From Myxococcota bacterium (GTDB lineage: Bacteria > Myxococcota_A > Polyangia > Nannocystales > Nannocystaceae): a stretch of DNA of 64,000 bases. Below, piece by piece: positions 1,210 through 12,406 of the stretch. Positions within the stretch are counted from its first letter, which is position 1, and each line of letters starts with the position of its first letter. The DNA lies in contig JBCCHT010000006.1 in assembly GCA_039028615.1 (NCBI GenBank), forward strand, positions 64,001 to 128,000, given 5' to 3'. A program made the position numbers and the translations under genes. The notes below the pieces were generated by a model that was not told the origin of the DNA, did no database searches, and saw nothing but the letters and a program-made list of their open reading frames with translations.

Positions 1210-3090
1210 TCAACCGGTGCTGCTGTTCAATAGGGCGGCCACGATTCCCATGAGGGATTCGCCCGCGATGAGGCCCGCAGCCACGGGAACGGCCAGCGCA
1301 GCCAAGGCCTGCGGTCGACGTCGGGCGATCGCCCAGGCCACCAGGCCCCCCACGAAGAACGACAGGGCATTGGAGGCGGGCAGCACGAAGGCCAAGCCCA
1401 GGCCGGTCGCGCTGGGCAGCCACGGGCGCCAGGCAGGCCGCCCGTGCTCGAGCAGGGCCAAGATCACCGCGACCGCGGCTGCGATCACGGCGGCCCACAG
1501 CGCAGACGCCGGGATGCTCGACAGGCCCTGCCCGACCACCGTGCTCACCGACGCCCACACCCGAGCCGCGGGGGCGGGCCACGCTGCGCTCCCCAGGGCA
1601 GACGCATCGGGCACCAGCACGTAGCGATAGATCGGCACCACCACCGCCACGCCCACCACCACGCCGACCGCCTGGGCGAGGAACTGACGGCGCGGGTGAG
1701 CGCCCAGCAACGATCCGCTCTTGAGATCGGTCAGCAGATCGGCCGCGCTCGCGGCTGCCCCCGCGCTGACGGTGGCGATCATGAGGTTGGGCGCGGGGCG
1801 GCCGGGGATCATCACGCCGCCCGCGAGCTGAGCCACCTTGCCCAGCGGGCCCATGGGAGTGATGTCGGTCTCCCCCGTCACGCGGGCGGCCACCGTGGCC
1901 AGCACCACCGCCAGCACCACCGCCAGCACGGCCACCACCACGGGAATGTCGAACAGCACCACCTGCAGCACGATGCAGCCGAGCGCCGCGGCCCCGCCCC
2001 CGTAGCCGACCCACGAGGGCGGCACCTCGAGGTCGGCCACCGGATCGGCCTCGCGATCGCGCTCGGGCGTCGCCCGGCGAAAAATGCCCAGGCCTCGCGC
2101 GACGCTGCGCCACCGGGGCGCGAGCGCGGACAGCCCGGCGATCATCATGAGGGTGGCCCCGGGCCACACGCTCCAGGCGACGACATTGCGATAGCCAGGG
2201 CCCGCGACGAGGCCCTCTTCGAGCAGCCGCGGCGCGATCAACCCGAAGCAGACCAGGGCCCCCAGCCCGATGCTCCAGCCGACACGCCACCCCACCAAGA
2301 TGCCCGCCGCGGGCAAGAGCAGAGACACCTCGAGGGCCCAGCCGTAGGCGACGAGGGCTCCCAGCGCAGGCACGGCCTCGACCATCGCCTCGGTGGGTAG
2401 GCTCGACGGCAACGCGAGCCACGACGGCGTCCCGAGCGAGCCGGACAGCAGCGGCAGGACCGAGGTCAGCCCCTGCAGGCCCACGCCGATGGCCAGGGCG
2501 ATCATCAACGCCCGCGCCTGCCGACGGCCCTCGCCTCCGTCCGAATGCAGCGTTCGCAGGGTCTCGGCCGCGGCCGCCCCCGACGGGAAGGGCAGCTGCT
2601 CGGCGTTGATCAGCATGCGCTTGAGCGGCACCGCAATGAACAAGCCCAACATGCTGATCGACAGGATCCACGCCATGAGCTGCCACAGCGGCAGGTGGTG
2701 CCCCGTGATCATGAGGTGGGCGGCCATGGCCGAGACCAGCGTGGTGCCGGTGGAGTAGCCCGCCGCCGAGGCGGTCGAGGCCATGGCGTTGGTCTCGAGC
2801 ACCGTCGCCTCGCGCCGCGAGATCCCCGTTCGCACCGCGAGTCGCCACGCGGCCCAGCCCACGATGCTCGCGGTGATGACCACGCCGAGGCTCCAGCCGA
2901 TCTTGAGCCCCACGTACAGGTTGGACAGCCCGGTCACCGCCCCCAGCACCGCGCCCATGGCCAGGGCCCGCGCGGTGAGCTGCGGGACCCGGTCGCCCTG
3001 ATACACCCGCTGCCTCCACGCGCGGTCGATCGCCTCGGGACCATGGGTCTCGAGCGTGGGCAGGGGCGCCGAGGGCTCGGGCGCGGGCAC
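1210..3090 (-). CDS. OPT family oligopeptide transporter
   Basis: 626 aa polytopic membrane protein with OPT motifs QLTARAL, NLYVGLKIGW, LPFPSGAAAAETL, DLLTDLKSGSLLGAHPRRQFLAQ, AAGLIAGESL. Confidence 0.92.
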   Translation of the reverse strand: MPAPEPSAPLPTLETHGPEAIDRAWRQRVYQGDRVPQLTARALAMGAVLGAVTGLSNLYVGLKIGWSLGVVITASIVGWAAWRLAVRTGISRREATVLETNAMASTASAAGYSTGTTLVSAMAAHLMITGHHLPLWQLMAWILSISMLGLFIAVPLKRMLINAEQLPFPSGAAAAETLRTLHSDGGEGRRQARALMIALAIGVGLQGLTSVLPLLSGSLGTPSWLALPSSLPTEAMVEAVPALGALVAYGWALEVSLLLPAAGILVGWRVGWSIGLGALVCFGLIAPRLLEEGLVAGPGYRNVVAWSVWPGATLMMIAGLSALAPRWRSVARGLGIFRRATPERDREADPVADLEVPPSWVGYGGGAAALGCIVLQVVLFDIPVVVAVLAVVLAVVLATVAARVTGETDITPMGPLGKVAQLAGGVMIPGRPAPNLMIATVSAGAAASAADLLTDLKSGSLLGAHPRRQFLAQAVGVVVGVAVVVPIYRYVLVPDASALGSAAWPAPAARVWASVSTVVGQGLSSIPASALWAAVIAAAVAVILALLEHGRPAWRPWLPSATGLGLAFVLPASNALSFFVGGLVAWAIARRRPQALAALAVPVAAGLIAGESLMGIVAALLNSSTG

Positions 3091-3140
3091 ACCCGATGAT
3101 ACCGACGAAGACGGCGCCTGGCCGCGCTACCATCGATGAA

Positions 3141-4187
3141 GTGCCGGGCTGGACCTCGAATCGGGCGTGCTGGCAGCTGGTGACGCTCCTGCTGCTCGGC
3201 TGCGGCTCTCGAACGACGACGCCTGTCGGGGAGACGCCTCGGGCTGCGCCCGCCCCCGAGCCTGCGATGGTGACGACACCGACCTCACCATCCGCAACCT
3301 CGCCGCCCGCCGAGCCTCACCGAGTGCAGTCGTTGCAGATCGTGGTGCTGTCGACCTCGGTCGCCCCGCAGGGCGTCTCGGAGTGGGGATTCGCCGCGCT
3401 GGTGGAGGCGGATGGCCATCGCATCCTGTTCGACACGGGTGCGCGCCCAGACACGGTGAAGCGCAATGCGAAGACGCTCGGCATCGACCTGGCCACCGTG
3501 CCCACCGTCGTGCTCAGCCATCATCATGACGATCACGTGGGTGGCTTGTTGACGCTGCGGCAGTCGGTCCTGCCCACGCATCCCGACGCGCTGGCCACGG
3601 TGCATGTCGGCCGGGGGATCTTCGAGCCGCGGCGTTACGGCGCCAAGACCCACGAAGTCAACGACATGCTCACCATTCGGCCCGCGTTCGAGGCCACGGG
3701 CGGCCGCTTCGTCGAGCACGCCGAGCCCGCGATGCTCGTGCCCGGCGTGTGGGTCACGGGGCCCGTGCCGCGCGTGCACCCGGAGCGCAACTACAGCGGT
3801 GCTCGCCGGCTCCCGGGCGGTGATGGTTGGATCGAAGACACGCTGCCCGAGAGCCAGTCGCTGGTCATCGAGACCACCGAGGGCCTGGTGTTGCTTTCGG
3901 GGTGCGGGCATGCGGGGATCGTCAACACCGTGACCCATGCGCGAGACGCCGTCTCGTCCGCCCCGCTGCACGCGGCCGTCGGCGGCTTCCACCTGCATCG
4001 GGCCAAGCCCGAGCACCTGCGGTGGACGGCCGCCGCGTTGCGTGAAGCGGGCCTCGACGTATTCGCGGGAGCCCACTGCACGGGCCGACGGGCGATCGAA
4101 CGCGTGGGCCGAGCCCCTGGCGTCGCCTCGTCGGTGGAGCTCGGGGTCGGCGAGGCCTTTGTGCTCGGCGCCGATGAAGCCGGCTGA
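3141..4187 (+). CDS. Metallo-beta-lactamase-fold hydrolase, predicted lipoprotein
   Basis: ILFDTG, SHHHDDH (HxHxDH), SGCGHAG, GGFHL and HCTG motifs; lipobox LLGC. GTG 3141 preferred (track start 3096). Confidence 0.85.
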   Translation: MPGWTSNRACWQLVTLLLLGCGSRTTTPVGETPRAAPAPEPAMVTTPTSPSATSPPAEPHRVQSLQIVVLSTSVAPQGVSEWGFAALVEADGHRILFDTGARPDTVKRNAKTLGIDLATVPTVVLSHHHDDHVGGLLTLRQSVLPTHPDALATVHVGRGIFEPRRYGAKTHEVNDMLTIRPAFEATGGRFVEHAEPAMLVPGVWVTGPVPRVHPERNYSGARRLPGGDGWIEDTLPESQSLVIETTEGLVLLSGCGHAGIVNTVTHARDAVSSAPLHAAVGGFHLHRAKPEHLRWTAAALREAGLDVFAGAHCTGRRAIERVGRAPGVASSVELGVGEAFVLGADEAG

Positions 4188-4391
4188 ACTCGATCTGTAT
4201 CCGCGGTAACGAGTCGCACCGCAACCGCTGCTCGCCCTTCGCCGTCGAGACGAGAGTCTGAACAAGGTCGGCCGACTCGGGTGACTCCCAATTGTCGGCA
4301 GGCATGGGTGTCCGCGGACGTCCGTCATTCATCACGTGACAGACGTCGGACGGCGACGACCCGTGATGCACGAGCGAAGGGACGAGGAGCG

Positions 4392-6011
4392 ATGAACCAG
4401 ATGAATGAAACGACCGCCATTGGGAACAACCGCCGCCCAGGATCGACGTCCTGGAAGATCCGAGTCGGCTTCGGCGCCACGCTATGCGCCCTCGTCGGCG
4501 CCTGTGACCCCGGTGTCGCTCCGATCGAGACGGACGTCGACGGCACCTTCCGGGCAAAAACGACGGCGAATGCCCTGGTCGTGTCCTCGGACGTCATGAC
4601 CGCGATCAAGGAGTGGGAGCTGAGCGACCGGGATATGACCCTGGCCGAGCACCTCGAGGCCAAGGCCCGCTTTCGAACGACCACCGATGCCTCGCTGACC
4701 GCGGCCGTGAGCGCCCTGTCGGCCCCGGACACCTGCACCGCGTTCATCTCCGAACCCGATTTCAGCGGCGTGCACCGCATCGACGATCAGTCCAACGACA
4801 ACTGGCGGGCCTGGAGCGAGGGAGTCTCGTTCATGGCCGACGTCAACCTCGACTACGACAACGTCTCCGACGACGACACCGTCATCGACTCGTTCGGCGC
4901 CCAGAACAAGGTCAAGTTCGAGATCTTCACCGAGTGTCCGGACGAAACCGCGAACATCGTGCCCAAGCTCGCGCTGCACTCGTCGTACTTCGGGCGAGTG
5001 TCCGTGCGCAGCTCCGCGTCGACCCGCTTCGCCGGCTCGGCCGAGGCCACCGCACGACTCCAGGGCGTCACTGCTACCCGCGTCACCGAGTTCGACAGCG
5101 GCGATGTGCTCACGGTACTGGCCGCCAACTCCCTCCAACTTCAGTCTTCGAGCAAGGCCCAGTCACAAGATTGGCAGCAGGAGCTACTGCTCGAGATCGT
5201 GGACATCGCTCGCGACTACGCCAAAATCACCGTCGATACGAGCGAAGAGGCCGTCACCGCCTTCGGTCCCAAGAAAGTCGCGAAAAACGGCACGGCCGAT
5301 GCCGACACCATCATTGCCGATGCGGCGAGCGCTGCGAAGACCTTCCTCAACGGCATCGTCCAGGACCAGAGTCAGTCCAACTTTCACAAGACCACCGACC
5401 TGTTCGCGGAGAAGGAACTCGGCCGAGTTCTCGACGACTCGGGGCAGCCGCTGGCCATCGGCAAGACCTACATCGTCACGATGCACTCGGAGTACAGCAT
5501 CGAGACGAACGCCAAGACCCATCACAAGGCCGCGGGGTGGCCGAGGCACTCTCGTCAGCACGCCCACGCCGGGGTGCAAGTAATCGACGACTTCTTGTTG
5601 GCGGGCGTGGTCGGTTTCGAGGATTCGAACCACGCCTACCGCGTCCCGGGCACGGAGGAGGCAGCCTTCTTCGTGGCGGGCACCAAGCCCTCTCACCCCA
5701 ACCTCTTCATCGACCTCGAAGAAGTGCCCGATCCCCTCGACGAGCCCGGCCCCGACGACGAAGACATACACCTGACCGGGCTGAGCAGCGACCGCAACTT
5801 CGCCGAGCTTGCCAACGATGCGCGCTCGTTCTTCTCCGCGGTGTGGCCGACGGGCGGCGATCTCCACGACCAAGTCTTCGCCCGGCTCGAGCTCATGGCC
5901 GATCGCGACGCGACGAACTACAAGACATCGGATATCGGCAAGACCGACGGAGTCAACGTGGTCGCGGAGACCCTCACCGGGATCAACACGCCCTGCATCC
6001 GCACCGAGTAG
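4392..6011 (+). CDS. Hypothetical secreted protein/lipoprotein of unknown family
   Basis: GAGGAG RBS just before ATG 4392; signal peptide ending LVGAC; globular, protein-like composition; no family recognised. Confidence 0.75.
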   Translation: MNQMNETTAIGNNRRPGSTSWKIRVGFGATLCALVGACDPGVAPIETDVDGTFRAKTTANALVVSSDVMTAIKEWELSDRDMTLAEHLEAKARFRTTTDASLTAAVSALSAPDTCTAFISEPDFSGVHRIDDQSNDNWRAWSEGVSFMADVNLDYDNVSDDDTVIDSFGAQNKVKFEIFTECPDETANIVPKLALHSSYFGRVSVRSSASTRFAGSAEATARLQGVTATRVTEFDSGDVLTVLAANSLQLQSSSKAQSQDWQQELLLEIVDIARDYAKITVDTSEEAVTAFGPKKVAKNGTADADTIIADAASAAKTFLNGIVQDQSQSNFHKTTDLFAEKELGRVLDDSGQPLAIGKTYIVTMHSEYSIETNAKTHHKAAGWPRHSRQHAHAGVQVIDDFLLAGVVGFEDSNHAYRVPGTEEAAFFVAGTKPSHPNLFIDLEEVPDPLDEPGPDDEDIHLTGLSSDRNFAELANDARSFFSAVWPTGGDLHDQVFARLELMADRDATNYKTSDIGKTDGVNVVAETLTGINTPCIRTE

Positions 6012-6012
6012 C

Positions 6013-7320
6013 TCAACCCGGGGGTGGCTCGTCGAGCCACCCCTGCCCCGTCTCGGCGATCGTGCGCGCCCACGGGAGCAACGACTCGGGCCAGTCTTCT
6101 TCGACGATCTCGAAGCGGGCATGGTCGAAGGGCTCGCCCGTCGCCGGCTGCACTCGCACCAGTCGCTCACGCCGGCCGCGGGTCATCAGATCGAGCGCAC
6201 GGTGGTGACACACGGGGTTGTTGCCCCGCCGCCCCGACAACACGTGACTCGTCCACGTGCAGCCGGCCTTGCAGACGTCGGCGTAGTAGCAGCTCGCGCA
6301 GTAGCCCCACAGGTCCTCGGTCTTGCGCCCTCGAGTGAAGCGCAGCGCCTTCGACCGCTCCCACACCGCCTGCAGACCGTGCTCGCGGACGTTGCCGCCG
6401 ACATAGGCATCGGTGGGCAAGGACGGGCAGCCCTTGATGTCGCCGTTGGCCTCGAGGCCCAGCGTGTCGCGCCCCGCCCCGCAGCCCGTACCGTGCCCCC
6501 GCGGCATGTGCCGACGAAAACGCCCCTCGTAGGGCCCGAAGTAGCCGACGTTGGTGCCCGGCCATAGCCGCACGCCGACCTGTTCGGTGCGCTCCTGCAG
6601 GCGCATCACCATCGGCATGACCTCGACCATCTGATAGGGCTGCAGCAGCAGGTCCGGCTCGTCGGCGGCGCGCCCCATGGCCACCGTGATCTGCACCTGC
6701 CACGAGTGGATCCCCAGCGGGTGCAACAGCTCGAAGAGCGGCTCGATCTGCTTGCGGTTGGGCTGACAGATCTGGGTGTTGACCGAGATCGGCATGCCCA
6801 CCGCATGAAGGTGCTCGAGCGCGCCGACGGCCGCGCGATGGCTGCCCTCGACCGCTCGCAGCTGGTCGTGGGTGTGTTCGAGACCATCGATGGAGACGGA
6901 GACCGTACCGATGCCGGCATCTTTGGCCCGCTGAGCCCGCTCGCGGGTGATCCCCCGCCCTCCCGTCGTCATGCCGCACTCGATGCCCGCGCCGACCAAG
7001 GCCGCCGCGATCCGATCCCAGTCGTCGCGCAGGTAGGCCTCGCCTCCGATGAGCGAGACCTCGCGGACCCCCAGATCGGCCATCTGCCGCACCATGTCGA
7101 GGGCTTCGTCCGTACTCAGCTCGTCGGGCCGAGCGTGACCCGCCCGCGACCCGCAGTGACGGCACGCGAGATCGCAACGCAGGGTGATCTCCCAGACCGC
7201 GTAGATCGGCCGCACCGAGTCGATGGGCCGCACCTCGTCGGCGAGCGGTAGGTGGGTCCGCGATGGCTTGGCGCGCGGAGCGATGGGCAGAGACCGCGGC
7301 CGAGGACCGAGTTCACTCAC
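6013..7320 (-). CDS. Radical SAM/SPASM peptide/protein maturase, PlpX (splicease)/TIGR03913-like
   Basis: VWEITLRCDLACRHCGSRAG (CxxxCxxC), IGGEAYLR, SVSIDG; SPASM region GCGAG...GLEANGDIKGCPSL...LWGYCASCYYADVCKAGC...GNNPVCHHRAL. Confidence 0.92.
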   Translation of the reverse strand: MSELGPRPRSLPIAPRAKPSRTHLPLADEVRPIDSVRPIYAVWEITLRCDLACRHCGSRAGHARPDELSTDEALDMVRQMADLGVREVSLIGGEAYLRDDWDRIAAALVGAGIECGMTTGGRGITRERAQRAKDAGIGTVSVSIDGLEHTHDQLRAVEGSHRAAVGALEHLHAVGMPISVNTQICQPNRKQIEPLFELLHPLGIHSWQVQITVAMGRAADEPDLLLQPYQMVEVMPMVMRLQERTEQVGVRLWPGTNVGYFGPYEGRFRRHMPRGHGTGCGAGRDTLGLEANGDIKGCPSLPTDAYVGGNVREHGLQAVWERSKALRFTRGRKTEDLWGYCASCYYADVCKAGCTWTSHVLSGRRGNNPVCHHRALDLMTRGRRERLVRVQPATGEPFDHARFEIVEEDWPESLLPWARTIAETGQGWLDEPPPG

Positions 7321-7323
7321 CGG

Positions 7324-7848
7324 TCAGCCACCCGCGCCGGGTTTGGGCTTCGGCTCGGGTTTGGGCTTCGGCCGCGGCGCACCGCCGTACTTGGGCGCGG
7401 GGCGAGGCCGCTCTTCTTTGCCGGGCACGTCGACCTTTCGGGGCGGACCACCGTACTTGGTGGCGATGGGCCGCTCTTCGACCTCGGCGGGCGGCTTGTC
7501 GGCGACCTCTCCTCCATCGGCAGGCTCGCTCGGCTGCTTGGGTTGCTCGGGCGCCACCGCGTCGGGCGTGGCCGGCTCCTCGGGCTTGTCGGGCTCGGGC
7601 TTCGCCTCGGGCTTGGCTCCGCCATCGGCCTTGGCCGGCGTCTCGACCTTGGCCTTGTCGTCGGCCTTGCCGTCTGCTTTGGCCTTGCCGTCGTCACAGG
7701 CCGACAGCAGCATCAGCGGCAGGGCCAGCACCAGCGCTCGCGCCAGCACGGGGGCCGACGTGGTCGAGGACCGCCCACAAAACGGGCAGTGCTCGTCTTC
7801 GATTCGCACGTGACGCGTGCACCCCGGGCACTCGACCAGCTGGCTCAT
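7324..7848 (-). CDS. Putative rSAM substrate: N-terminal Zn-ribbon, lipoprotein signal, P/E/K linker, two KYGG motifs
   Basis: CPGC-x10-CPFC, hydrophobic stretch ending LSAC, then IATKYGGPP and PAPKYGGAP; stop lies 3 nt upstream of the rSAM GTG. Confidence 0.8.
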   Translation of the reverse strand: MSQLVECPGCTRHVRIEDEHCPFCGRSSTTSAPVLARALVLALPLMLLSACDDGKAKADGKADDKAKVETPAKADGGAKPEAKPEPDKPEEPATPDAVAPEQPKQPSEPADGGEVADKPPAEVEERPIATKYGGPPRKVDVPGKEERPRPAPKYGGAPRPKPKPEPKPKPGAGG

Positions 7849-7905
7849 GACCGGAATGCTACCGCGATTTTCGGCCGGATGCGGGAAAATCCCGCCGTCC
7901 TCGGC

Positions 7906-9375
7906 TCACTCCTCGGACGGCTTCTTGAAGATCATGCGCCGACCGGGCTTCTTGGTCGTGGGTTCGTCGTCCTTGTAGACGACCGTCTCGCGCTTGCCGT
8001 TCTCGTCGACTTCGACCCAGCGGCCCTGCTTCTTGCCCTCTTCGTACTTGCCCGAGGCCTTGAGGCTGCCGTCGTCGTACCAGTACTCGCCCTTGCCGTG
8101 GCGCTCGTCGTCCTTGTAATGCTCCCGGTACTCGCGCTCGCCGTTTTTGTAGAAGCCTTCCCACTCGCCCTGCTTGTCGCCGGTCTTGTACTCGCCCTCG
8201 GTCTTCTTCTGACCGTCGCGGAACCACCACATCCAGATGCCCTGGCGGCGGTTCTTCCAGTACTCGCCCTCGACCCGCTTCTGGCCGTTGTTCCAGTAGG
8301 CGAGGAACTCCCCTTCCCGCTTGCCGTCGAGGTAGTCGATCTCCTCCTTGACCCGCGAGTTGTTGTGGAACTCGGTCCAGCGGCCTTCCTTCTTGCCCTC
8401 GAGGAACTCGCCCTCGAGCTTGACCCCCGCGTCGGCGTCAGCGCTCTGCCACTGGGTCCAGGTGCCGTGCTTGATGCCGCCCTCTTTTTCGCACCACTGC
8501 TCTTTGCCATCGGGGGGCGCGGCGCCCTTGCTCACCAGGTCATCGCCGCAGTGGCCAGCCTCGACCTTGGCGCCGTCCTTCCACTCGTCCTCGGCGACCT
8601 TCTTGCCGTCTCGGTCGAACTCGACCCACTTGCCGTTCTTGCGACCATCGACGTAGGCGCCCTCGGCCGCGAGCTGGCCGTTGTCATGCCACGCGCGATG
8701 GGTGCCCTCTTCGGTGTCGTCCTTGTAGTTGCTCTCGTCGCGCTTTTGGCCGTTGTCGAAGAAGTGCACCCACTGCCCGTTGCGCTTGCCCTTGCGGTAC
8801 TCGCCGTCGCTGCGCTTTTGGCCATCCTCGGAGAAGGTCACCCAGCGCCCGTGCTTGACGTCGTCCTGGTACTCGCCTTCTTCCTGCTTTTGACCGTTTT
8901 CGTACCAACTGGTCGATTTGCCGTGCTTGTGGCCGTCCCGGTACTCGGTCTCGTGCCAGCGCTCGGAGGTGCCGTCGTGCCAGCGTGACCAGCGACCGTG
9001 CCGCACGGTGCGACCGTCCTTTTCGCGCTCGCACCATGCCTCGTGCCCGGCCGGGGGCGTTGCCCCCTTGGCCACCCCACCGTCGGGGCAGTCGATGGCG
9101 GGCGCAGCTGCGGCGGCTTCGGCTTCGGCGGCCGCCTCGTCTCCTGCCGCTTTGGCCTCCGCCCCGTCTTTGGCGTCTTCGGCCTTGCCCTCGTCCGCCT
9201 TGGCGTCGGCCTTGCTCTCGTCGGCCTTCGCTTCGTCCTTGGACTCGTCGGCTTTGGCCTCGTCCTTGGCTTCGTCGCCGCCACCGGTCAGCCGATCACA
9301 GGCGGGAGCGAACAACGTGAGGCTCGCGAGGCTCGCGAGCACGACGACACGATGACGGCGGACAGACATCGCCAT
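7906..9375 (-). CDS. MORN-variant repeat (YwqK-like) lipoprotein
   Basis: Many GxWxxW[YH]xNGQKxxEGxYxxG repeats; lipobox APAC; start 9375 (MAMSVRR) preferred over track start 9504. Confidence 0.88.
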   Translation of the reverse strand: MAMSVRRHRVVVLASLASLTLFAPACDRLTGGGDEAKDEAKADESKDEAKADESKADAKADEGKAEDAKDGAEAKAAGDEAAAEAEAAAAAPAIDCPDGGVAKGATPPAGHEAWCEREKDGRTVRHGRWSRWHDGTSERWHETEYRDGHKHGKSTSWYENGQKQEEGEYQDDVKHGRWVTFSEDGQKRSDGEYRKGKRNGQWVHFFDNGQKRDESNYKDDTEEGTHRAWHDNGQLAAEGAYVDGRKNGKWVEFDRDGKKVAEDEWKDGAKVEAGHCGDDLVSKGAAPPDGKEQWCEKEGGIKHGTWTQWQSADADAGVKLEGEFLEGKKEGRWTEFHNNSRVKEEIDYLDGKREGEFLAYWNNGQKRVEGEYWKNRRQGIWMWWFRDGQKKTEGEYKTGDKQGEWEGFYKNGEREYREHYKDDERHGKGEYWYDDGSLKASGKYEEGKKQGRWVEVDENGKRETVVYKDDEPTTKKPGRRMIFKKPSEE

Positions 9376-9543
9376 GGACGGTGGCACACCCCACGGGGGC
9401 AGGGCAAAGTCTCCCCCGCGCCCCACCCCCGCGGGTGGCCCCCGCAGCGCCCGCGACGACGCGAAACGCCGTCGTCGGGCTCTCATGCTCGATGCGTCCC
9501 ACAAAGGCCCACTGGCCCAACCGCGGCCCGGGCCAAGCAGGCT

Positions 9544-10899
9544 CTAGTCATTCCAGCTGATGATCGTTGCGGCCACGGCTCCCAAGCTCGGACCGTAGTC
9601 ACCATTGCAAACGGAGTAGAGCCCGTCGTCGGGCGCGGAGGCGAACGCGTTGGCGACCGCTCGCATGCGGACCGGGGGCACCGCCCGCTGGTCGTCGAAG
9701 TCACAGCCCGGACCCACGCCGAAGTCGTGGTGGAACTCGGGGGTCCCCGTGTTGCCATACTCGAAGCCGCCATCGATCGCGCGACCGACCAGCCCCATCA
9801 CCGCGACGCGCCCGGCGATCTTGGCGTCTTGGATCGCCTGCAGCTGATCGATGTACCGCGACACGGGCAGCATTGCTGCTGCGTCTGGCGTGGTCGGTGA
9901 TCCGTCGGCCGCGAGGTCGACGGGGTTGCACTCGAGATCCGCCCCCGCCCCGGTGCACTCGACCCCCGCGTTCCAGCACACGGCCGAGGTCGGCGCAGGC
10001 GCGTCCTGGTCGGACCAGAACACACGATCGCCATCGGGCAGGAAGATGGTCTCCTGCTCGGGGTTGTAGGAGCAGTCCGCCTCGTCGGTCACGAAGATGA
10101 CCAGCAGGTTCGCGTCATCGCGAATGAAGCCGTTTTGCTCCTCGCCCACCGTCGACGACCGCTGAATCGCGCGGTGCATCGCCTCGAGCGGCTGCTCGAA
10201 GCCGCAGCCGGCAATCCCCATCGGCAACGCGCACGACAGCAGCGCGGACGGAGCCTGGCCCGGGGTGTTGTTGTCGGCGGCCGAGGTCCACTCGAGCCAC
10301 GGGCGCACGGCGGGGGCCGGCTGTCCGTCGACCGTCGATGGGTCGATATCGAAGGAATCCAGCGCACAGACGTCGAGGCACGCCTCCTGGGTGGCGTCGA
10401 TCTGCATCGCCCCGTCAAAGACGAAGTCCGATTGGCGCTCCCGACAGCTCGAGAGCACGAAATTGCCCGCCTCGGGCGTGCTGCCCTGACACCAGGGGTT
10501 GCCGACGTCCGTGGTGGTGATACCCAGCCGGAAACGAATGCCCGCGTTGCGCAGCGGCTCCGTCAGCTCGCCGATGGACTGTGCCAGTTTCGCCTGCTCG
10601 GCTCCCATGAAGCCGGAGTTGTCGACGACAAAGAGGATGTCGACCGCATCCGAGCCCTCGGGAGGCGGAGGCGGATCGGTGGGGTCGTCCGGCGGATTTC
10701 CGTCCGAGCCGTCTTCGCCATCGGTCATGCCATCGTTCATCGAGGTCGCGCCCGGCCCGTCGCCAGAGGCCCCCGCCTCGTCGTTCCCTTCCGTCGCACC
10801 GAGTTCATCGGTATCGACGTTCCCGAGATCGACCTGCACACCGCACCCAGCCGCCGCAGCCAGGGCCGCGACCATACTCCAACCATGCATTGTTCTCAT
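9544..10899 (-). CDS. Myxobacterial vWA-like Cys-rich lipoprotein
   Basis: Lipobox AAGC; VDILFVVDNSGFM, GITTTD, GCGFEQPLEAM, FIRDDANLLVIFVTDEADCS, PPVR, SVC motifs. Confidence 0.82.
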   Translation of the reverse strand: MRTMHGWSMVAALAAAAGCGVQVDLGNVDTDELGATEGNDEAGASGDGPGATSMNDGMTDGEDGSDGNPPDDPTDPPPPPEGSDAVDILFVVDNSGFMGAEQAKLAQSIGELTEPLRNAGIRFRLGITTTDVGNPWCQGSTPEAGNFVLSSCRERQSDFVFDGAMQIDATQEACLDVCALDSFDIDPSTVDGQPAPAVRPWLEWTSAADNNTPGQAPSALLSCALPMGIAGCGFEQPLEAMHRAIQRSSTVGEEQNGFIRDDANLLVIFVTDEADCSYNPEQETIFLPDGDRVFWSDQDAPAPTSAVCWNAGVECTGAGADLECNPVDLAADGSPTTPDAAAMLPVSRYIDQLQAIQDAKIAGRVAVMGLVGRAIDGGFEYGNTGTPEFHHDFGVGPGCDFDDQRAVPPVRMRAVANAFASAPDDGLYSVCNGDYGPSLGAVAATIISWND

Positions 10900-10909
10900 T
10901 GCTTTGCTT

Positions 10910-11722
10910 TCACTCTATCGAACAGGCTTCTGCCACTCGTTGTTCATGGACCGAACGGGGGAATCGAGAAGAAAAGGACGCCGCGGTCCGAGCCCCGGAT
11001 TTCACATCGAGGCCACACTTCGCGATGGCATGTAGAGCCTCGCGATCTTCGGTGAGCGCCCCACGGGGAAACTCGCGGCGATGGGTCGCGACGATGGACA
11101 ACGCGTTGCGATGTTCACCGCGATTGACCGCCTGCCCCGCCCACTTGATGAGCTCGATCTCGCGAGCGATGCCGGTCGGGCGCTTGCCCTCGCTCGCAGA
11201 GGCCTCCGGGCGTCGTTCCTTGCGAGCGCGACCGGGCGCACGCGGCTCGGGCACGGCGGCGGTCCCGGCTTCGGCCTCGGCCTCGGGGGCGTCGTCCATG
11301 GGCGCCGGCTCGGGCGTCACCGCGTCCGTGTTCGCGGGGGCCACCGCGGGCGCGGGAACCTCGTCGACGTCGCTCGAGGGTGATGCCGAGGCGCGAGCCT
11401 CGGGGCGAGCGGTCTCGCCCTGTTCTGCATCGGATGCGACCGCACCAGACCCGGCTTGGTCGTCCGCCGGATCGAGCACCAGCACCAGCGCGATTGCAGC
11501 CCCGGCAAAGGTCGCCCCCATCAGCGCCTTGCTGACGACGGTCTTCAGCAGCGCGGCTCCGCCCGAGGGCGTGGGAGGCGGCGGCACGTCGAAGGGCGCC
11601 ACCGCACCCGCGGCCATGCTCCGCTTCAGTCGCTGCCAGTTCTGCTTGGCAACACCAGGCGCGGGCGCGGGCGGCTCTTCGCGCTCTGCCGCGATCAAGG
11701 AATCGAGCGCCGAGCGTTTCAT
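10910..11722 (-). CDS. Putative anti-sigma factor (single TM helix, Pro/Ala linker, C-terminal TPR-like helices)
   Basis: Start overlaps the ECF sigma stop (ATGA); TM segment FAGAAIALVLVL; C-terminal REIELI...HRREFPRGALTEDRE...FPRS module typical of myxobacterial ECF partners. Confidence 0.7.
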   Translation of the reverse strand: MKRSALDSLIAAEREEPPAPAPGVAKQNWQRLKRSMAAGAVAPFDVPPPPTPSGGAALLKTVVSKALMGATFAGAAIALVLVLDPADDQAGSGAVASDAEQGETARPEARASASPSSDVDEVPAPAVAPANTDAVTPEPAPMDDAPEAEAEAGTAAVPEPRAPGRARKERRPEASASEGKRPTGIAREIELIKWAGQAVNRGEHRNALSIVATHRREFPRGALTEDREALHAIAKCGLDVKSGARTAASFSSRFPRSVHEQRVAEACSIE

Positions 11723-12228
11723 CGTGCGTTCCTCCGACTACGAGCTTCGCTCCGGGCCAGCACCCGCGAGAGTTTTTCGCGGGCGAGGCGAAGGCGGGAG
11801 TACACGGTGGCGACCTTGACCCCCACCACCGCCGCGATCTCGGGCGCGGTCATGCCTTCGAGCTCCGCCATGATGAACACCGCCCGCTGGTCGTCGTCGA
11901 GTACGGAGAGGATCTCTCTGAGGGTTCGCGCCGCGTCGGCGCGCGCGTGGGGCTCGTGGGCTTCCACTTGTTCGCGGGCCACCCGACTACGCCGCTTTCG
12001 CTCGCGGGCCGCATCGCGCCGGATCCCCTGGGCCACCCGCATCGCGATGGCAAAGAGCCAGGTTCGCAGGTTCGCTCGCCCCTCGAACTCTTCGAGCCGA
12101 CGCGCCACCACCAAGAAGGTGTCGTGCATCGCATCGTCGACGCGGTGATCGGGCACGCCCAGCCGCACCAAGGAACGCCACACGAAGCGGTGGTGTTCGC
12201 GGTAGACCTTCTCGAGCTGTCGCGTCAT
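11719..12228 (-). CDS. ECF RNA polymerase sigma factor
   Basis: Region 2 VYREHHRFVWRSLVRLGV..DDAMHDTFLV..FEGRANLRTWLFAIA; region 4 QRAVFIMAELEGMTAPEIA..TVYSRLRLAR. Start uncertain (frame open to 12354). Confidence 0.93.
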   Translation of the reverse strand: MTRQLEKVYREHHRFVWRSLVRLGVPDHRVDDAMHDTFLVVARRLEEFEGRANLRTWLFAIAMRVAQGIRRDAARERKRRSRVAREQVEAHEPHARADAARTLREILSVLDDDQRAVFIMAELEGMTAPEIAAVVGVKVATVYSRLRLAREKLSRVLARSEARSRRNAR

Positions 12229-12406
12229 GGCCGGCGCGCGTCGTCGTGAGCCCGGGCCCGAGCCCACGCGGGAGCTCAGCTTCGTCGGGAGGTTGCCCTC
12301 GACGAACGATACCGCGGCAGAGAAGCTCACATCCGTCCGTGCCGCGGGCCCCACGAATCCATCACGATTTTTCAGACAAACTCTAAACCTTCGTCATTTT
12401 AGGTAC

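Follow-up and report, generated by a model that had tools for sequence, protein, structure and literature searches.

The DNA analysed here, a 64,000-nucleotide stretch of a Myxococcota bacterium genome (contig JBCCHT010000006.1, positions 64,001 to 128,000; hereafter the window), contains a small gene directly before a radical SAM/SPASM enzyme gene. The small protein combines a zinc ribbon, a lipoprotein-type signal and two KYGG sites, and the locus raises the question of what the enzyme does to this protein and where the product goes. The gene pairing, the conservation of the motifs and the family relationship of the enzyme are established in this analysis. The reading favoured here, which we hold to be fairly likely, is a two-component (binary) tyramine-splicing system in which the zinc ribbon and the signal peptide together form the leader, and in which the general lipoprotein pathway exports the product and removes that leader. 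To judge from the sequences, keto-amide groups that block proteases probably decorate an envelope protein, by way of a chemistry known from small peptides.

The gene pair and its surroundings

The cassette consists of the following features, numbered by position in the window, with the basis of each in brackets.

7324-7848, minus strand: substrate gene, 174 aa, ATG start (open reading frame call)
7321-7323, minus strand: 3-nt spacer between the stop of the substrate gene and the start of the enzyme gene, TGA-ccg-GTG (sequence)
6013-7320, minus strand: splicease-like radical SAM/SPASM enzyme gene, 435 aa, GTG start (open reading frame call)
7856-7861, minus strand: TAGCAT hexamer (sequence; promoter function without support)
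7777-7830, minus strand: zinc ribbon C7xxC10-x10-C21PFC24, proposed enzyme-docking leader (invariant residues, AF2, complex model)
7696-7755, minus strand: hydrophobic h-region and lipobox L48-S49-A50-C51, residues 32-51 (predicted helix, invariant C51)
7447-7458, minus strand: KYGG site 1, K131 Y132 G133 G134 (sequence; Y132 and G133 invariant in alignment A1)
7381-7392, minus strand: KYGG site 2, K153 Y154 G155 G156 (Y154 and G155 invariant, K153 nearly so)
7153-7176, minus strand: CxxxCxxC radical SAM cluster motif C49-C53-C56, CDLACRHC (translation; invariant in 40 orthologues)
6208-6483, minus strand: SPASM region with the auxiliary-cluster cysteines C280 to C371, including IKGCPSL, CASCYYADVCKAGC and NPVCHH (Pfam SPASM)

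The substrate gene lies upstream of the enzyme gene on the same strand and translationally close to it, and the 3-nt separation reported in the initial annotation is found at these positions. Translation likewise bears out its account of the small protein (CxxC-x10-CPFC, a hydrophobic segment ending in LSAC, and two KYGG motifs with the only Tyr residues) and of the enzyme, whose named motifs are present (WEITLRCDLACRHCGSRAG, IKGCPSL, LWGYC and GNNPVCHHRAL). The small protein runs from the zinc ribbon through a lipobox-bearing signal peptide and a disordered linker to the two KYG sites, and its only two Tyr residues, Y132 and Y154, each lie inside a KYGG. The -10-like box proposed for the pair survives as a sequence but gains no support as a promoter: the TAGCAT hexamer is present 7 nt before the substrate-gene ATG, and a promoter scan of 5800-9700 returned 0 sigma-70-like sites.

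The neighbours of the cassette are an OPT transporter, an MBL-fold protein, a MORN-repeat protein, an ECF sigma factor and two proteins with no Pfam match. Their annotation includes no adjacent RRE/PqqD, peptidase or exporter gene and no small RRE-like ORF, in agreement with the earlier observation that no RRE/PlpY partner, peptidase or exporter adjoins the pair. Of three wider orthologous contexts, one also has the MBL-fold gene, and none has any of the other neighbours; the radical SAM-small gene pair is accompanied by the MBL-fold gene in that one context and stands alone in the other two (L092 is among the contexts). An anti-sigma-factor reading of the zinc ribbon and membrane segment was rejected, the ECF sigma pair at 10910-12354 being ~3 kb away and not conserved beside the cassette.

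Family position of the enzyme and the proposed reaction

Pfam assigns the enzyme a Radical_SAM domain (80.9 bits) and a SPASM domain (31.1 bits, residues 280-345). Seven cysteines of the SPASM region (C280, C298, C341, C344, C350, C354 and C371) are invariant among 40 orthologues. The enzyme shares the CxxxCxxC motif block with the Nostoc and Azospirillum reference enzymes, and the catalytic and SPASM motif blocks are common to it and to both named families, TIGR04103 and TIGR03913, and are absent from the outgroups. Orthologues with 64-81% identity occur in 8 of 24 genomes of the same family.

On the family models the enzyme scores 483.4 bits for TIGR04103 and 441.5 bits for TIGR03913, below the respective cut-offs of 725 and 591.75. 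The next-best family reaches 158 bits, TIGR04133 (rSAM 'with lipoprotein') gives 156.1 bits against a cut-off of 425, and the PqqE-type models give 103 bits. A true TIGR04103 member from Nostoc scores 853.1 bits on its own model, and the two leading scores of the window enzyme are higher than those of true members on each other's models (414.5 bits for Nostoc on TIGR03913, 435.0 bits for Azospirillum on TIGR04103). Quick and careful trees both put the enzyme within the splicease-like radiation. A sister relation to TIGR03913, with a support of 83 in the quick tree, was discarded after the careful mixture-model tree returned a polytomy. The initial annotation had placed the enzyme in the splicease clade; the scores of 483 and 441 against 158 bits and the agreement of the trees uphold this, short of the TIGR04103 and TIGR03913 cut-offs, and neither the scores nor the trees cluster the enzyme with non-splicease SPASM families. 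On sequence grounds, the enzyme is a third branch of the splicease-like radiation and not a PlpX equivalog, and membership of this radiation is the sole phylogenetic claim made for it.

Because the enzyme scores below the cut-offs and forms a polytomy with the named families, a changed chemistry is possible. The same pair could perform another radical modification at Tyr-Gly, such as a C-C or C-O cross-link, beta-hydroxylation, or cleavage without re-ligation, and we regard this as unlikely, though it is the alternative that survives best. Besides its place under both equivalog cut-offs and the unresolved deep branching of splicease-like clades in the careful tree, it can draw on the TIGR03913 precursors, which have Y-M and Y-A as well as Y-G, and the radiation may be chemically non-uniform. 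It must be set against the 50.5% identity of the enzyme to the Nostoc TIGR04103 equivalog and against the core of that equivalog's Nif11 precursor, which ends in ...ALYGLPPELF and has the same YGxPP shape as KYGGPP. The substrate also shares an RPxYGxP shape with the published PlpA splice tags, and the low score on the PqqE-type models speaks the same way. Thioether (sacti- or ranthipeptide) chemistry was rejected, as the mature part has no Cys apart from C51, and the Gly at +2 after Tyr in KYGG, which has no C-beta, would argue against a three-residue cyclophane. Tyramine splicing is the reaction judged most likely.

Proposed leader, membrane signal and modelled docking

Of the orthologous loci, 7 extend upstream of the enzyme gene, and all 7 have the zinc-ribbon/lipobox/KYG gene immediately before it. 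Among the related Myxococcota loci, gathered using enzyme alignment A3, a gene with zinc ribbon, Cys and YG is present in 58 of 71, and in 48 of the 51 whose flanks reach 1 kb or more on each side, the exceptions being L025, L057 and L062. Partners share the strand of the enzyme in 96 of 97 cases, and 1 to 5 tandem copies stand beside one enzyme gene. A count restricted to upstream partners (13/63) was set aside as misleading and repeated on both sides, the substrate genes lying downstream of the enzyme in most Polyangiales loci. The system occurs in two cultured species, Enhygromyxa salina SWB007 (L040) and Polyangium fumosum DSM 14668 (L064).

The window genome (12.27 Mb) holds six splicease-like rSAM genes, all full-length paralogues; the best in-genome paralogue scores 440.5 bits on TIGR03913, and none reach the cut-off. 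Ten stop-to-stop frames in this genome combine zinc ribbon, lipobox and YG, and four of them lie within 2.5 kb of the six rSAM genes, an area that makes up 0.30% of the genome. No partner gene stands beside paralogue C42. Pfam returned only weak zinc-finger matches for four paralogue partners.

The window protein itself gave a single Pfam match, a weak Zn_ribbon_3, with no Pfam or NCBIfam match to a Nif11 or NHLP leader. AF2 models residues 1-30 with a pLDDT of 83-89 and strands at 4-6 and 13-15. A search found 18 homologues of the substrate protein, and a profile search returned 2409 cluster representatives (clusters at 50% identity) at E<=0.001 and 125 at E<=1e-10. In alignment A2 (25 sequences, mean column identity 32%), C7, C10, H13, R15, C21, F23, C24, C51, G133, Y154 and G155 are invariant. 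The XYGxP pattern is found at 198 of 254 sites in 147 further representatives. Together with the full-flank loci, the alignment confirms that the YG, zinc ribbon and lipobox Cys noticed in the window are conserved in partner proteins. All the computational checks put forward with the initial annotation thereby turned out in its favour.

Residues 32-49 are predicted to form a helix, and the hydrophobic run A38-A50 ends in L48-S49-A50-C51; under the consensus applied, [LVI][ASTVI][GAS]C, this is a lipobox following A38-L47. The n-region, about 37 residues long, holds the folded zinc ribbon and includes R26 and R37. A folded n-region of ~30 residues is atypical for a lipoprotein signal peptide. 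A further alternative, to which we give a small share of belief, slightly below that given to a different Tyr-Gly chemistry, is splicing as proposed with no lipidation: the segment would be an uncleaved signal anchor with the zinc ribbon in the cytoplasm, or a signal peptidase I site, and the product would span the membrane or be soluble in the periplasm. In favour of this, Cys51 is 51 residues into the protein, a long way for a lipoprotein signal, no part of the protein is better conserved than the zinc ribbon, beyond the strict need of a disposable leader, and a strict lipobox pattern is matched by only 89 of 101 partner ORFs. The remaining 12 nevertheless keep a Cys after the hydrophobic run, as do all 25 aligned sequences and 145 of the 147 further representatives, and LSAC itself matches the lipobox consensus. 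As for the conserved zinc ribbon, conservation is usual in RiPP leaders, since they are read by the enzyme. A docking leader, probably cut off together with the signal peptide, is a better reading of the zinc ribbon than a segment of the mature lipoprotein. The host processing pathway is represented in the window genome by three lspA matches that score above the cut-off. The window protein has Asp at +2 and +3 after Cys51, where orthologues have T, S, A or G. Under the E. coli rule quoted in PMC13056109, Asp at such positions leads to inner-membrane retention and not to the surface, so that by this rule the window protein would stay in the inner membrane, which counts against the best reading.

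Docking was evaluated with a complex model of enzyme and substrate, which gave ipSAE values of 0.92, 0.93 and 0.92, against 0.01 for the best of 3 controls. The ipSAE mark is reached by 116 of 157 solved complexes and by 2 of 215 mismatched pairs, a calibration that is only rough here because the complex runs used custom alignments and riding ligands. The runs agree on at least 38% of contacts with a partner pLDDT of at least 43, and the overall partner pLDDT is low (44-48). In this strongly scoring model, the zinc ribbon (substrate residues 1-22) contacts the enzyme surface at residues 261-267, 271-276 and 345-349, and the second KYG segment (residues 147-160) is placed inside the enzyme barrel against the alternating strand residues 87/89/91, 114/116/118 and 177/179/181/183. 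The confident docking concerns one of the two KYG sites only. A PDB search matched SkfB and PqqE only and gave no splicease structure, so that the model score is unlikely to reflect memorised structures. That the small protein is not a substrate at all, and serves as a regulator or membrane tether to bring the enzyme to another target, would suit the surface docking of the zinc ribbon and the one paralogue partner that has no YG (C1:6677-7858), and is very improbable given YG sites that stay invariant amid drifting surroundings, a KYG segment modelled inside the barrel, and tandem substrate copies per enzyme gene in the manner of RiPP precursors.

Under the preferred splicing and lipidation reading, the process would begin in the cytoplasm, where the enzyme would dock at the N-terminus of the 174-aa preprotein, on its zinc ribbon, which would take the role of a RiPP leader or activator. 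Each x-Y-G-x-P-P site would then be threaded into the barrel, a tyramine equivalent would most likely be excised from Tyr132 and Tyr154, and the backbone would retain a lysine-derived alpha-keto-beta-amino acid (keto-amide) in each place. The modified chain would next be routed by its hydrophobic segment and LSAC lipobox via Sec, Lgt and LspA, and this general lipoprotein pathway would take off the zinc ribbon and signal peptide, together the leader, besides exporting the product, which would account for the lack of a dedicated peptidase or exporter. What emerges would be a disordered envelope protein held by a lipid anchor and bearing two electrophilic keto-amide groups, and from this tethered position it would probably inhibit trypsin-like (Lys-specific) serine or cysteine proteases. 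Ser and Cys proteases are inhibited by spliced peptides and not by unspliced ones, according to PMC11626197.

Significance and comparison with known systems

A splicease survey of 2022 (Scott et al., Chem) reportedly covers 939 predicted systems and 27 tested pairs, and this architecture may already be described in it. The literature search, which lay outside that survey, found no publication linking spliceases to lipoproteins, signal peptides, zinc ribbons or myxobacterial precursors. This suggests that the zinc ribbon is a leader type undescribed for spliceases in the literature covered here. Tyramine splicing has so far been documented for small precursors and engineered proteins, with no native final product known (PMC9811515). 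We put forward tentatively, as a possibility more doubtful than the splicing system itself, that a zinc ribbon in the n-region of a lipoprotein signal peptide is a new RiPP leader that would hold the preprotein on the cytoplasmic splicease until the Tyr-Gly sites are spliced and then release it to Sec, Lgt and LspA, making these proteins radical-SAM lipoprotein-RiPP hybrids. If true, the products would be lipid-anchored, disordered arrays of keto-amide warheads with a P1 residue set by X in XYG, which is Lys in the window clade and Leu, Met, Ala, Arg, Asp or Glu in other clades. In predatory myxobacteria, such arrays could shield the envelope or the outer-membrane vesicles against proteases. 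The substrate class is natural, is very widespread and extends across the Myxococcota, and it points to envelope proteins as the native setting of the splicing chemistry.

The type I spliceotide systems are PlpX/PlpY/PlpA and PcpXYA of Pleurocapsa, with TIGR04103 represented by a plasmid locus of Nostoc sp. C057. The Nostoc enzyme resembles that of the window in being a radical SAM/SPASM protein with the same motif blocks, and its adjoining precursor gene also has an x-Y-G-x-P(-P) core. Unlike type I substrates, the window substrate has no Nif11 or NHLP leader and is a 174-aa preprotein with a zinc ribbon, a lipoprotein-type signal and Lys as X. A 71-aa ORF follows the Nostoc enzyme gene, whereas the window has no such ORF and no Y protein.

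The TIGR03913 'GDL motif peptide-associated' rSAM enzymes (two Azospirillum loci, L085 and L090, and Aureibacter, L086) are 46-49% identical to the window enzyme. Their precursor genes form tandem copies and stand directly upstream of the enzyme, where the window substrate gene also stands, whereas the partners in most related myxobacterial loci are downstream; the precursors likewise have Tyr-Gly near one end. They differ in being helical DUF1843 peptides of about 55-70 aa with an N-terminal Tyr, no zinc ribbon and no signal peptide; DUF1843 genes were found only at the Azospirillum and Aureibacter loci and not beside the window enzyme.

The binary type II spliceotide systems of Rheinheimera (RhaX/RhaA, RcsX/RcsA and RasX/RasA) have two genes and no Y protein, like the window cassette, and their products inhibit Ser and Cys proteases (PMC11414181, PMC11626197). 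In these systems, according to PMC11414181, the N-terminal leader helix of the substrate binds and activates the enzyme, and AlphaFold puts the XYG sites in the active site. With PlpY-less binary systems known from that source, the missing partner is no objection to the splicease reading. The Rheinheimera leader is described as an alpha-helix, whereas the proposed window leader combines a zinc-ribbon beta-hairpin with a signal peptide behind it (a comparison by description), and the Rheinheimera products are thought to be released peptides, whereas the window product has a lipobox.

For the export route, the parallel is with the DAG-RiPPs (DybA/DybH), which are RiPP-lipoprotein hybrids. As set out in PMC13056109, these are modified in the cytoplasm and carry their own signal-peptidase-II signal, which delivers them to Lgt, LspA and Lnt without calling for a dedicated protease or exporter, and RiPP precursors bearing such signals become triacylated in E. 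coli. The DAG-RiPPs rely on an MNIO enzyme with a different chemistry and have no zinc ribbon in the signal peptide, whereas the window enzyme is a radical SAM protein; the words 'radical' and 'splice' occur 0 times in that paper. The same logic is proposed here, and if it applies, it would carry the newly described lipoprotein-RiPP route from MNIO over to radical SAM enzymes.

The cassette and its small protein

The cassette consists of two genes on one strand, with 3 nt separating the small-protein frame from the enzyme frame downstream of it:

7324-7848, minus strand, small-protein ORF of 174 aa, ATG start
6013-7320, minus strand, radical SAM/SPASM enzyme ORF of 435 aa, GTG start

The small protein opens with a zinc ribbon (M1...C7PGC10-x10-C21PFC24), followed by a basic, Ser/Thr-rich stretch and a hydrophobic run (A38-A50) that ends in L48-S49-A50-C51. 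Its linker is abundant in Lys, Ala, Asp, Glu and Pro, and its two sites, EERPIATK131-Y-G-GPP and EERPRPAPK153-Y-G-GAP, each hold one of the only two tyrosines in the protein. The initial annotation had located both KYGG sites exactly. The TAGCAT hexamer that it read as a -10-like box is indeed present at 7856-7861, but a promoter role is not borne out, as no sigma-70-like site turned up when 5800-9700 was scanned for promoters.

Directly upstream, after a gap of 57 nt, lies a gene for a 532-aa MORN_2-repeat protein (7906-9504, minus strand) that has its own hydrophobic N-terminus ending in APAC and a Lys/Ala/Asp/Glu-rich linker resembling that of the substrate. A MORN_2-repeat gene beside the cassette is not conserved in the three other genomes compared. 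The cassette is flanked by ORFs at 4281-6011 (plus strand, 576 aa) and 9544-10899 (minus strand, 451 aa), neither of which has a Pfam match.

Conservation of the pair and of its Tyr-Gly sites

Of the 24 other genomes of the same family that were searched, 8 have a close orthologue (64-81% identity). One of these loci starts right at the end of its contig; each of the seven with upstream DNA has a zinc-ribbon/lipobox/KYG gene immediately upstream in the same orientation, and in two of them this gene is present as a tandem pair. Scanning one genome for each species then provided a wider set of 71 related loci, 58 of which have a gene that combines zinc ribbon, hydrophobic run, Cys and YG. Where at least 1 kb is available on both sides (51 loci), this partner gene is found at 48, upstream only at 11 and downstream only at 37, and is missing at L025, L057 and L062. 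Copies range from one to five per locus, and 96 of 97 partner genes are on the enzyme’s strand. The lipobox was tested without circularity by collecting ORFs on zinc ribbon and YG, with no lipobox required (n=101); 89 match the strict lipobox pattern and the remaining 12 keep a Cys after the hydrophobic run. YG, lipobox Cys and zinc ribbon, as described in the initial annotation, are retained in the partner proteins.

Three orthologous contexts were also compared with all nine window genes. The radical SAM-small protein pair recurs together with the window’s MBL-fold gene in L091, and recurrence is limited to the pair in L093. In L092 only the radical SAM gene was matched by tblastn; its small gene is the one already seen next to the L008 orthologue, on the upstream side. 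Within the window’s own genome, 124 stop-to-stop frames contain a zinc ribbon and lipobox, 10 of them also with YG; four of these 10 are no more than 2.5 kb away from the six splicease-like radical SAM genes, a zone equal to 0.30% of the genome. A profile of the substrate family detects 2409 cluster representatives at E<=0.001; at E<=1e-10 the number is 125. Among 147 newly listed representatives, 140 have the zinc ribbon, 145 the hydrophobic run with Cys and 130 at least one YG, with XYGxP read at 198 of 254 sites.

In a 25-sequence alignment with a mean column identity of 32%, no variation is seen at C7, C10, H13, R15, C21, F23, C24, C51, G133, Y154 and G155; a first, 19-sequence alignment additionally kept Y132, G133, R149, P150 and K153 invariant. 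The X of XYG is Lys across the entire window clade; other clades have Leu, Ala, Met, Arg, Val, Asp, Pro or Glu there, and the residue frequently varies between sites of one protein. In Polyangiales/Sandaracinaceae loci (L016-L083, e.g. L023, L042 and L063), the enzyme gene is followed by a tandem array of two to five substrate genes; within one protein X changes from site to site, and the last site often has Arg (e.g. MYG, LYG, LYG, RYG). In some partners, YG immediately follows the lipobox Cys (MACYGAPC, MMACYGSPC, AACYG), so that X would be the lipidated residue itself (L094, at C8:122925-123569 of the window’s genome; L011:2805-3098; L006:2760-3326; L030; L041).

The same genome holds five further full-length splicease-like paralogues (48-54% identity):

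C8:122925-124743
C1:416464-418275
C1:5447-7858
C2:294057-296097
C42:17612-18829, with no neighbouring zinc-ribbon/lipobox gene

The other four adjoin such a gene; in two cases the C-terminal part of the partner is long and Cys-rich. Short matches to the enzyme family at C80:11306-11530 (window enzyme and TIGR03913 model) and C80:12666-12821 (TIGR03913 model only) may together be a broken seventh copy. An orphan substrate-like gene at C35:36131-36421 (minus strand; L099) has the same head as the window’s small protein (CPGCARHVR...CPFC), an ALAAC lipobox and only one TKYGGPP site, which comes seven residues past the Cys. No splicease-like radical SAM gene was found on that contig, and the window enzyme may accept the orphan’s product as an additional substrate.

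Enzyme family and modelled complex

Besides its SPASM domain, the enzyme has the radical SAM motif CDLACRHC; it was scored against the NCBIfam models TIGR04103 (cut-off 725 bits) and TIGR03913 (cut-off 591.75 bits).

Bit scores of the window enzyme and reference enzymes (TIGR04103; TIGR03913)
Window enzyme, below both cut-offs: 483.4; 441.5
Nostoc, true TIGR04103 member: 853.1; 414.5
Azospirillum, true TIGR03913 member: 435.0; 763.5
Aureibacter, with DUF1843 precursors: 460.8; 534.9

Given these scores and cross-scores, the window enzyme is no more distant from either named family than the two are from one another, and the cut-offs are narrow, since the Aureibacter enzyme also falls under both. 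The next best family is heme b synthase (158 bits), and TIGR04133, which the initial annotation had also named, scores 156. Identity by tblastn is 50.5% to the Nostoc equivalog and 46-49% to TIGR03913-type enzymes. All of these share the blocks VWEITLxCxLxCxHCGSRAG, GNNxGY(F/Y)GPxE, IKGCPSL, LWGxCxxCxYA and GNNPxCHHRAL, which are missing from the Agathobacter and Microbulbifer outgroups. A quick tree of 91 rows places the enzyme in a 16-row clade (support 99) whose named relatives are Nannocystaceae only (Enhygromyxa salina and a Nannocystis MAG), nested in a larger Myxococcota clade of 76 rows (support 96). The window clade is also recovered (100/99) in a more careful 28-row tree built under a mixture model, with no resolved deep order among the myxobacterial clades, TIGR03913 and TIGR04103. 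HMM scores, motif blocks and trees agree with the earlier assignment to the splicease-like radiation, outside every non-splicease SPASM family; judged from sequence, the enzyme is a separate branch of it and an equivalog of neither TIGR04103 nor TIGR03913.

Two related loci were noted separately. At L050, in a record labelled Verrucomicrobia, the cassette enzyme groups tightly, on branches of 0.05 and 0.08, with that of a Myxococcales MAG, which is probably a binning or labelling matter. At L089 (Tropicibacter oceani plasmid, 1692-5122), a splicease-like radical SAM gene scoring ~430 bits on both TIGR models is preceded by a phosphotransferase gene and followed, in the same direction, by trypsin-like peptidase and M23 peptidase genes.

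No splicease structure was found in the PDB. The complex was predicted from both alignments with SAM and three 4Fe-4S clusters, giving enzyme-partner ipSAE values of 0.92, 0.93 and 0.92 against 0.01 for the best of three controls. Of 157 solved complexes, 116 attain the ipSAE mark, as do 2 of 215 mismatched pairs, a calibration that is only approximate here given the custom alignments and riding ligands. At least 38% of contacts agree between runs, with partner pLDDT of at least 43. The first confident interface joins partner residues 1-22 (the zinc ribbon), with R12 and H13 in the tightest pairs, to enzyme residues 261-267, 271-276 and 345-349. The second joins partner 147-160 (the second KYG) to enzyme 39-44, 87/89/91, 114/116/118, 138-141, 177/179/181/183, 205-213 and 251-257, an alternating pattern that would fit inward-facing barrel strands; many of these enzyme residues are invariant in 40 orthologues. 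The hydrophobic segment lies outside the confident interface. In the monomer model, residues 1-30 have pLDDT 83-89 with strands at 4-6 and 13-15, followed by a helix (32-49) and disorder, and pLDDT climbs to 69-79 at 151-170.

Proposed maturation and comparison with known systems

In the proposed route, the zinc ribbon would act in the cytoplasm as leader or activator for the enzyme, which would excise tyramine at both KYG sites to leave Lys-derived keto-amides. The signal peptide would then pass the chain to Sec for export, to Lgt for lipidation at Cys51 and to LspA for cleavage, a route that would also take off the leader and need no dedicated protease or exporter. The genome has three lspA genes above cut-off. 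Asp follows Cys51 at +2 and +3, and by the E. coli rule the window protein may be kept in the inner membrane; orthologues have T, S, A or G at these positions. Because spliced, and not unspliced, peptides are described as inhibiting Ser and Cys proteases (PMC11626197), the most likely function by analogy would be a tethered protease inhibitor with Lys at P1.

MNIO-made DAG-RiPPs offer experimental precedent for the modify-then-lipoprotein-route logic (PMC13056109); that paper mentions neither radical SAM enzymes nor splicing. Targeted literature searches, together with general splicease and spliceotide listings, found no paper in which spliceases are connected with lipoproteins, signal peptides, zinc ribbons or precursors from myxobacteria. 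The main splicease survey, which according to a review comprises 3418 candidates, 189 genera and 27 confirmed pairs, may already list such precursors.

The core shape x-Y-G-x-P-P of the substrate recurs in the Nif11 precursor neighbouring the Nostoc TIGR04103 enzyme (...ALYGLPPELF), and resembles the published PlpA splice tag PIRPLYGLPI in Table 1 of PMC10533398. For known spliceases, Richter et al. (PMC11414181) describe AlphaFold models with XYG in the active site, the arrangement also seen in the window model, and a leader or Y-protein element that binds and activates the enzyme; in the window system the model suggests that a zinc ribbon, rather than a helix, would be that element. By analogy, the window system is proposed to work like a binary spliceotide system, from which it differs in an enzyme on its own branch, a leader modelled as a zinc ribbon within a signal peptide and a substrate that is a multi-site, lipoprotein-type preprotein.
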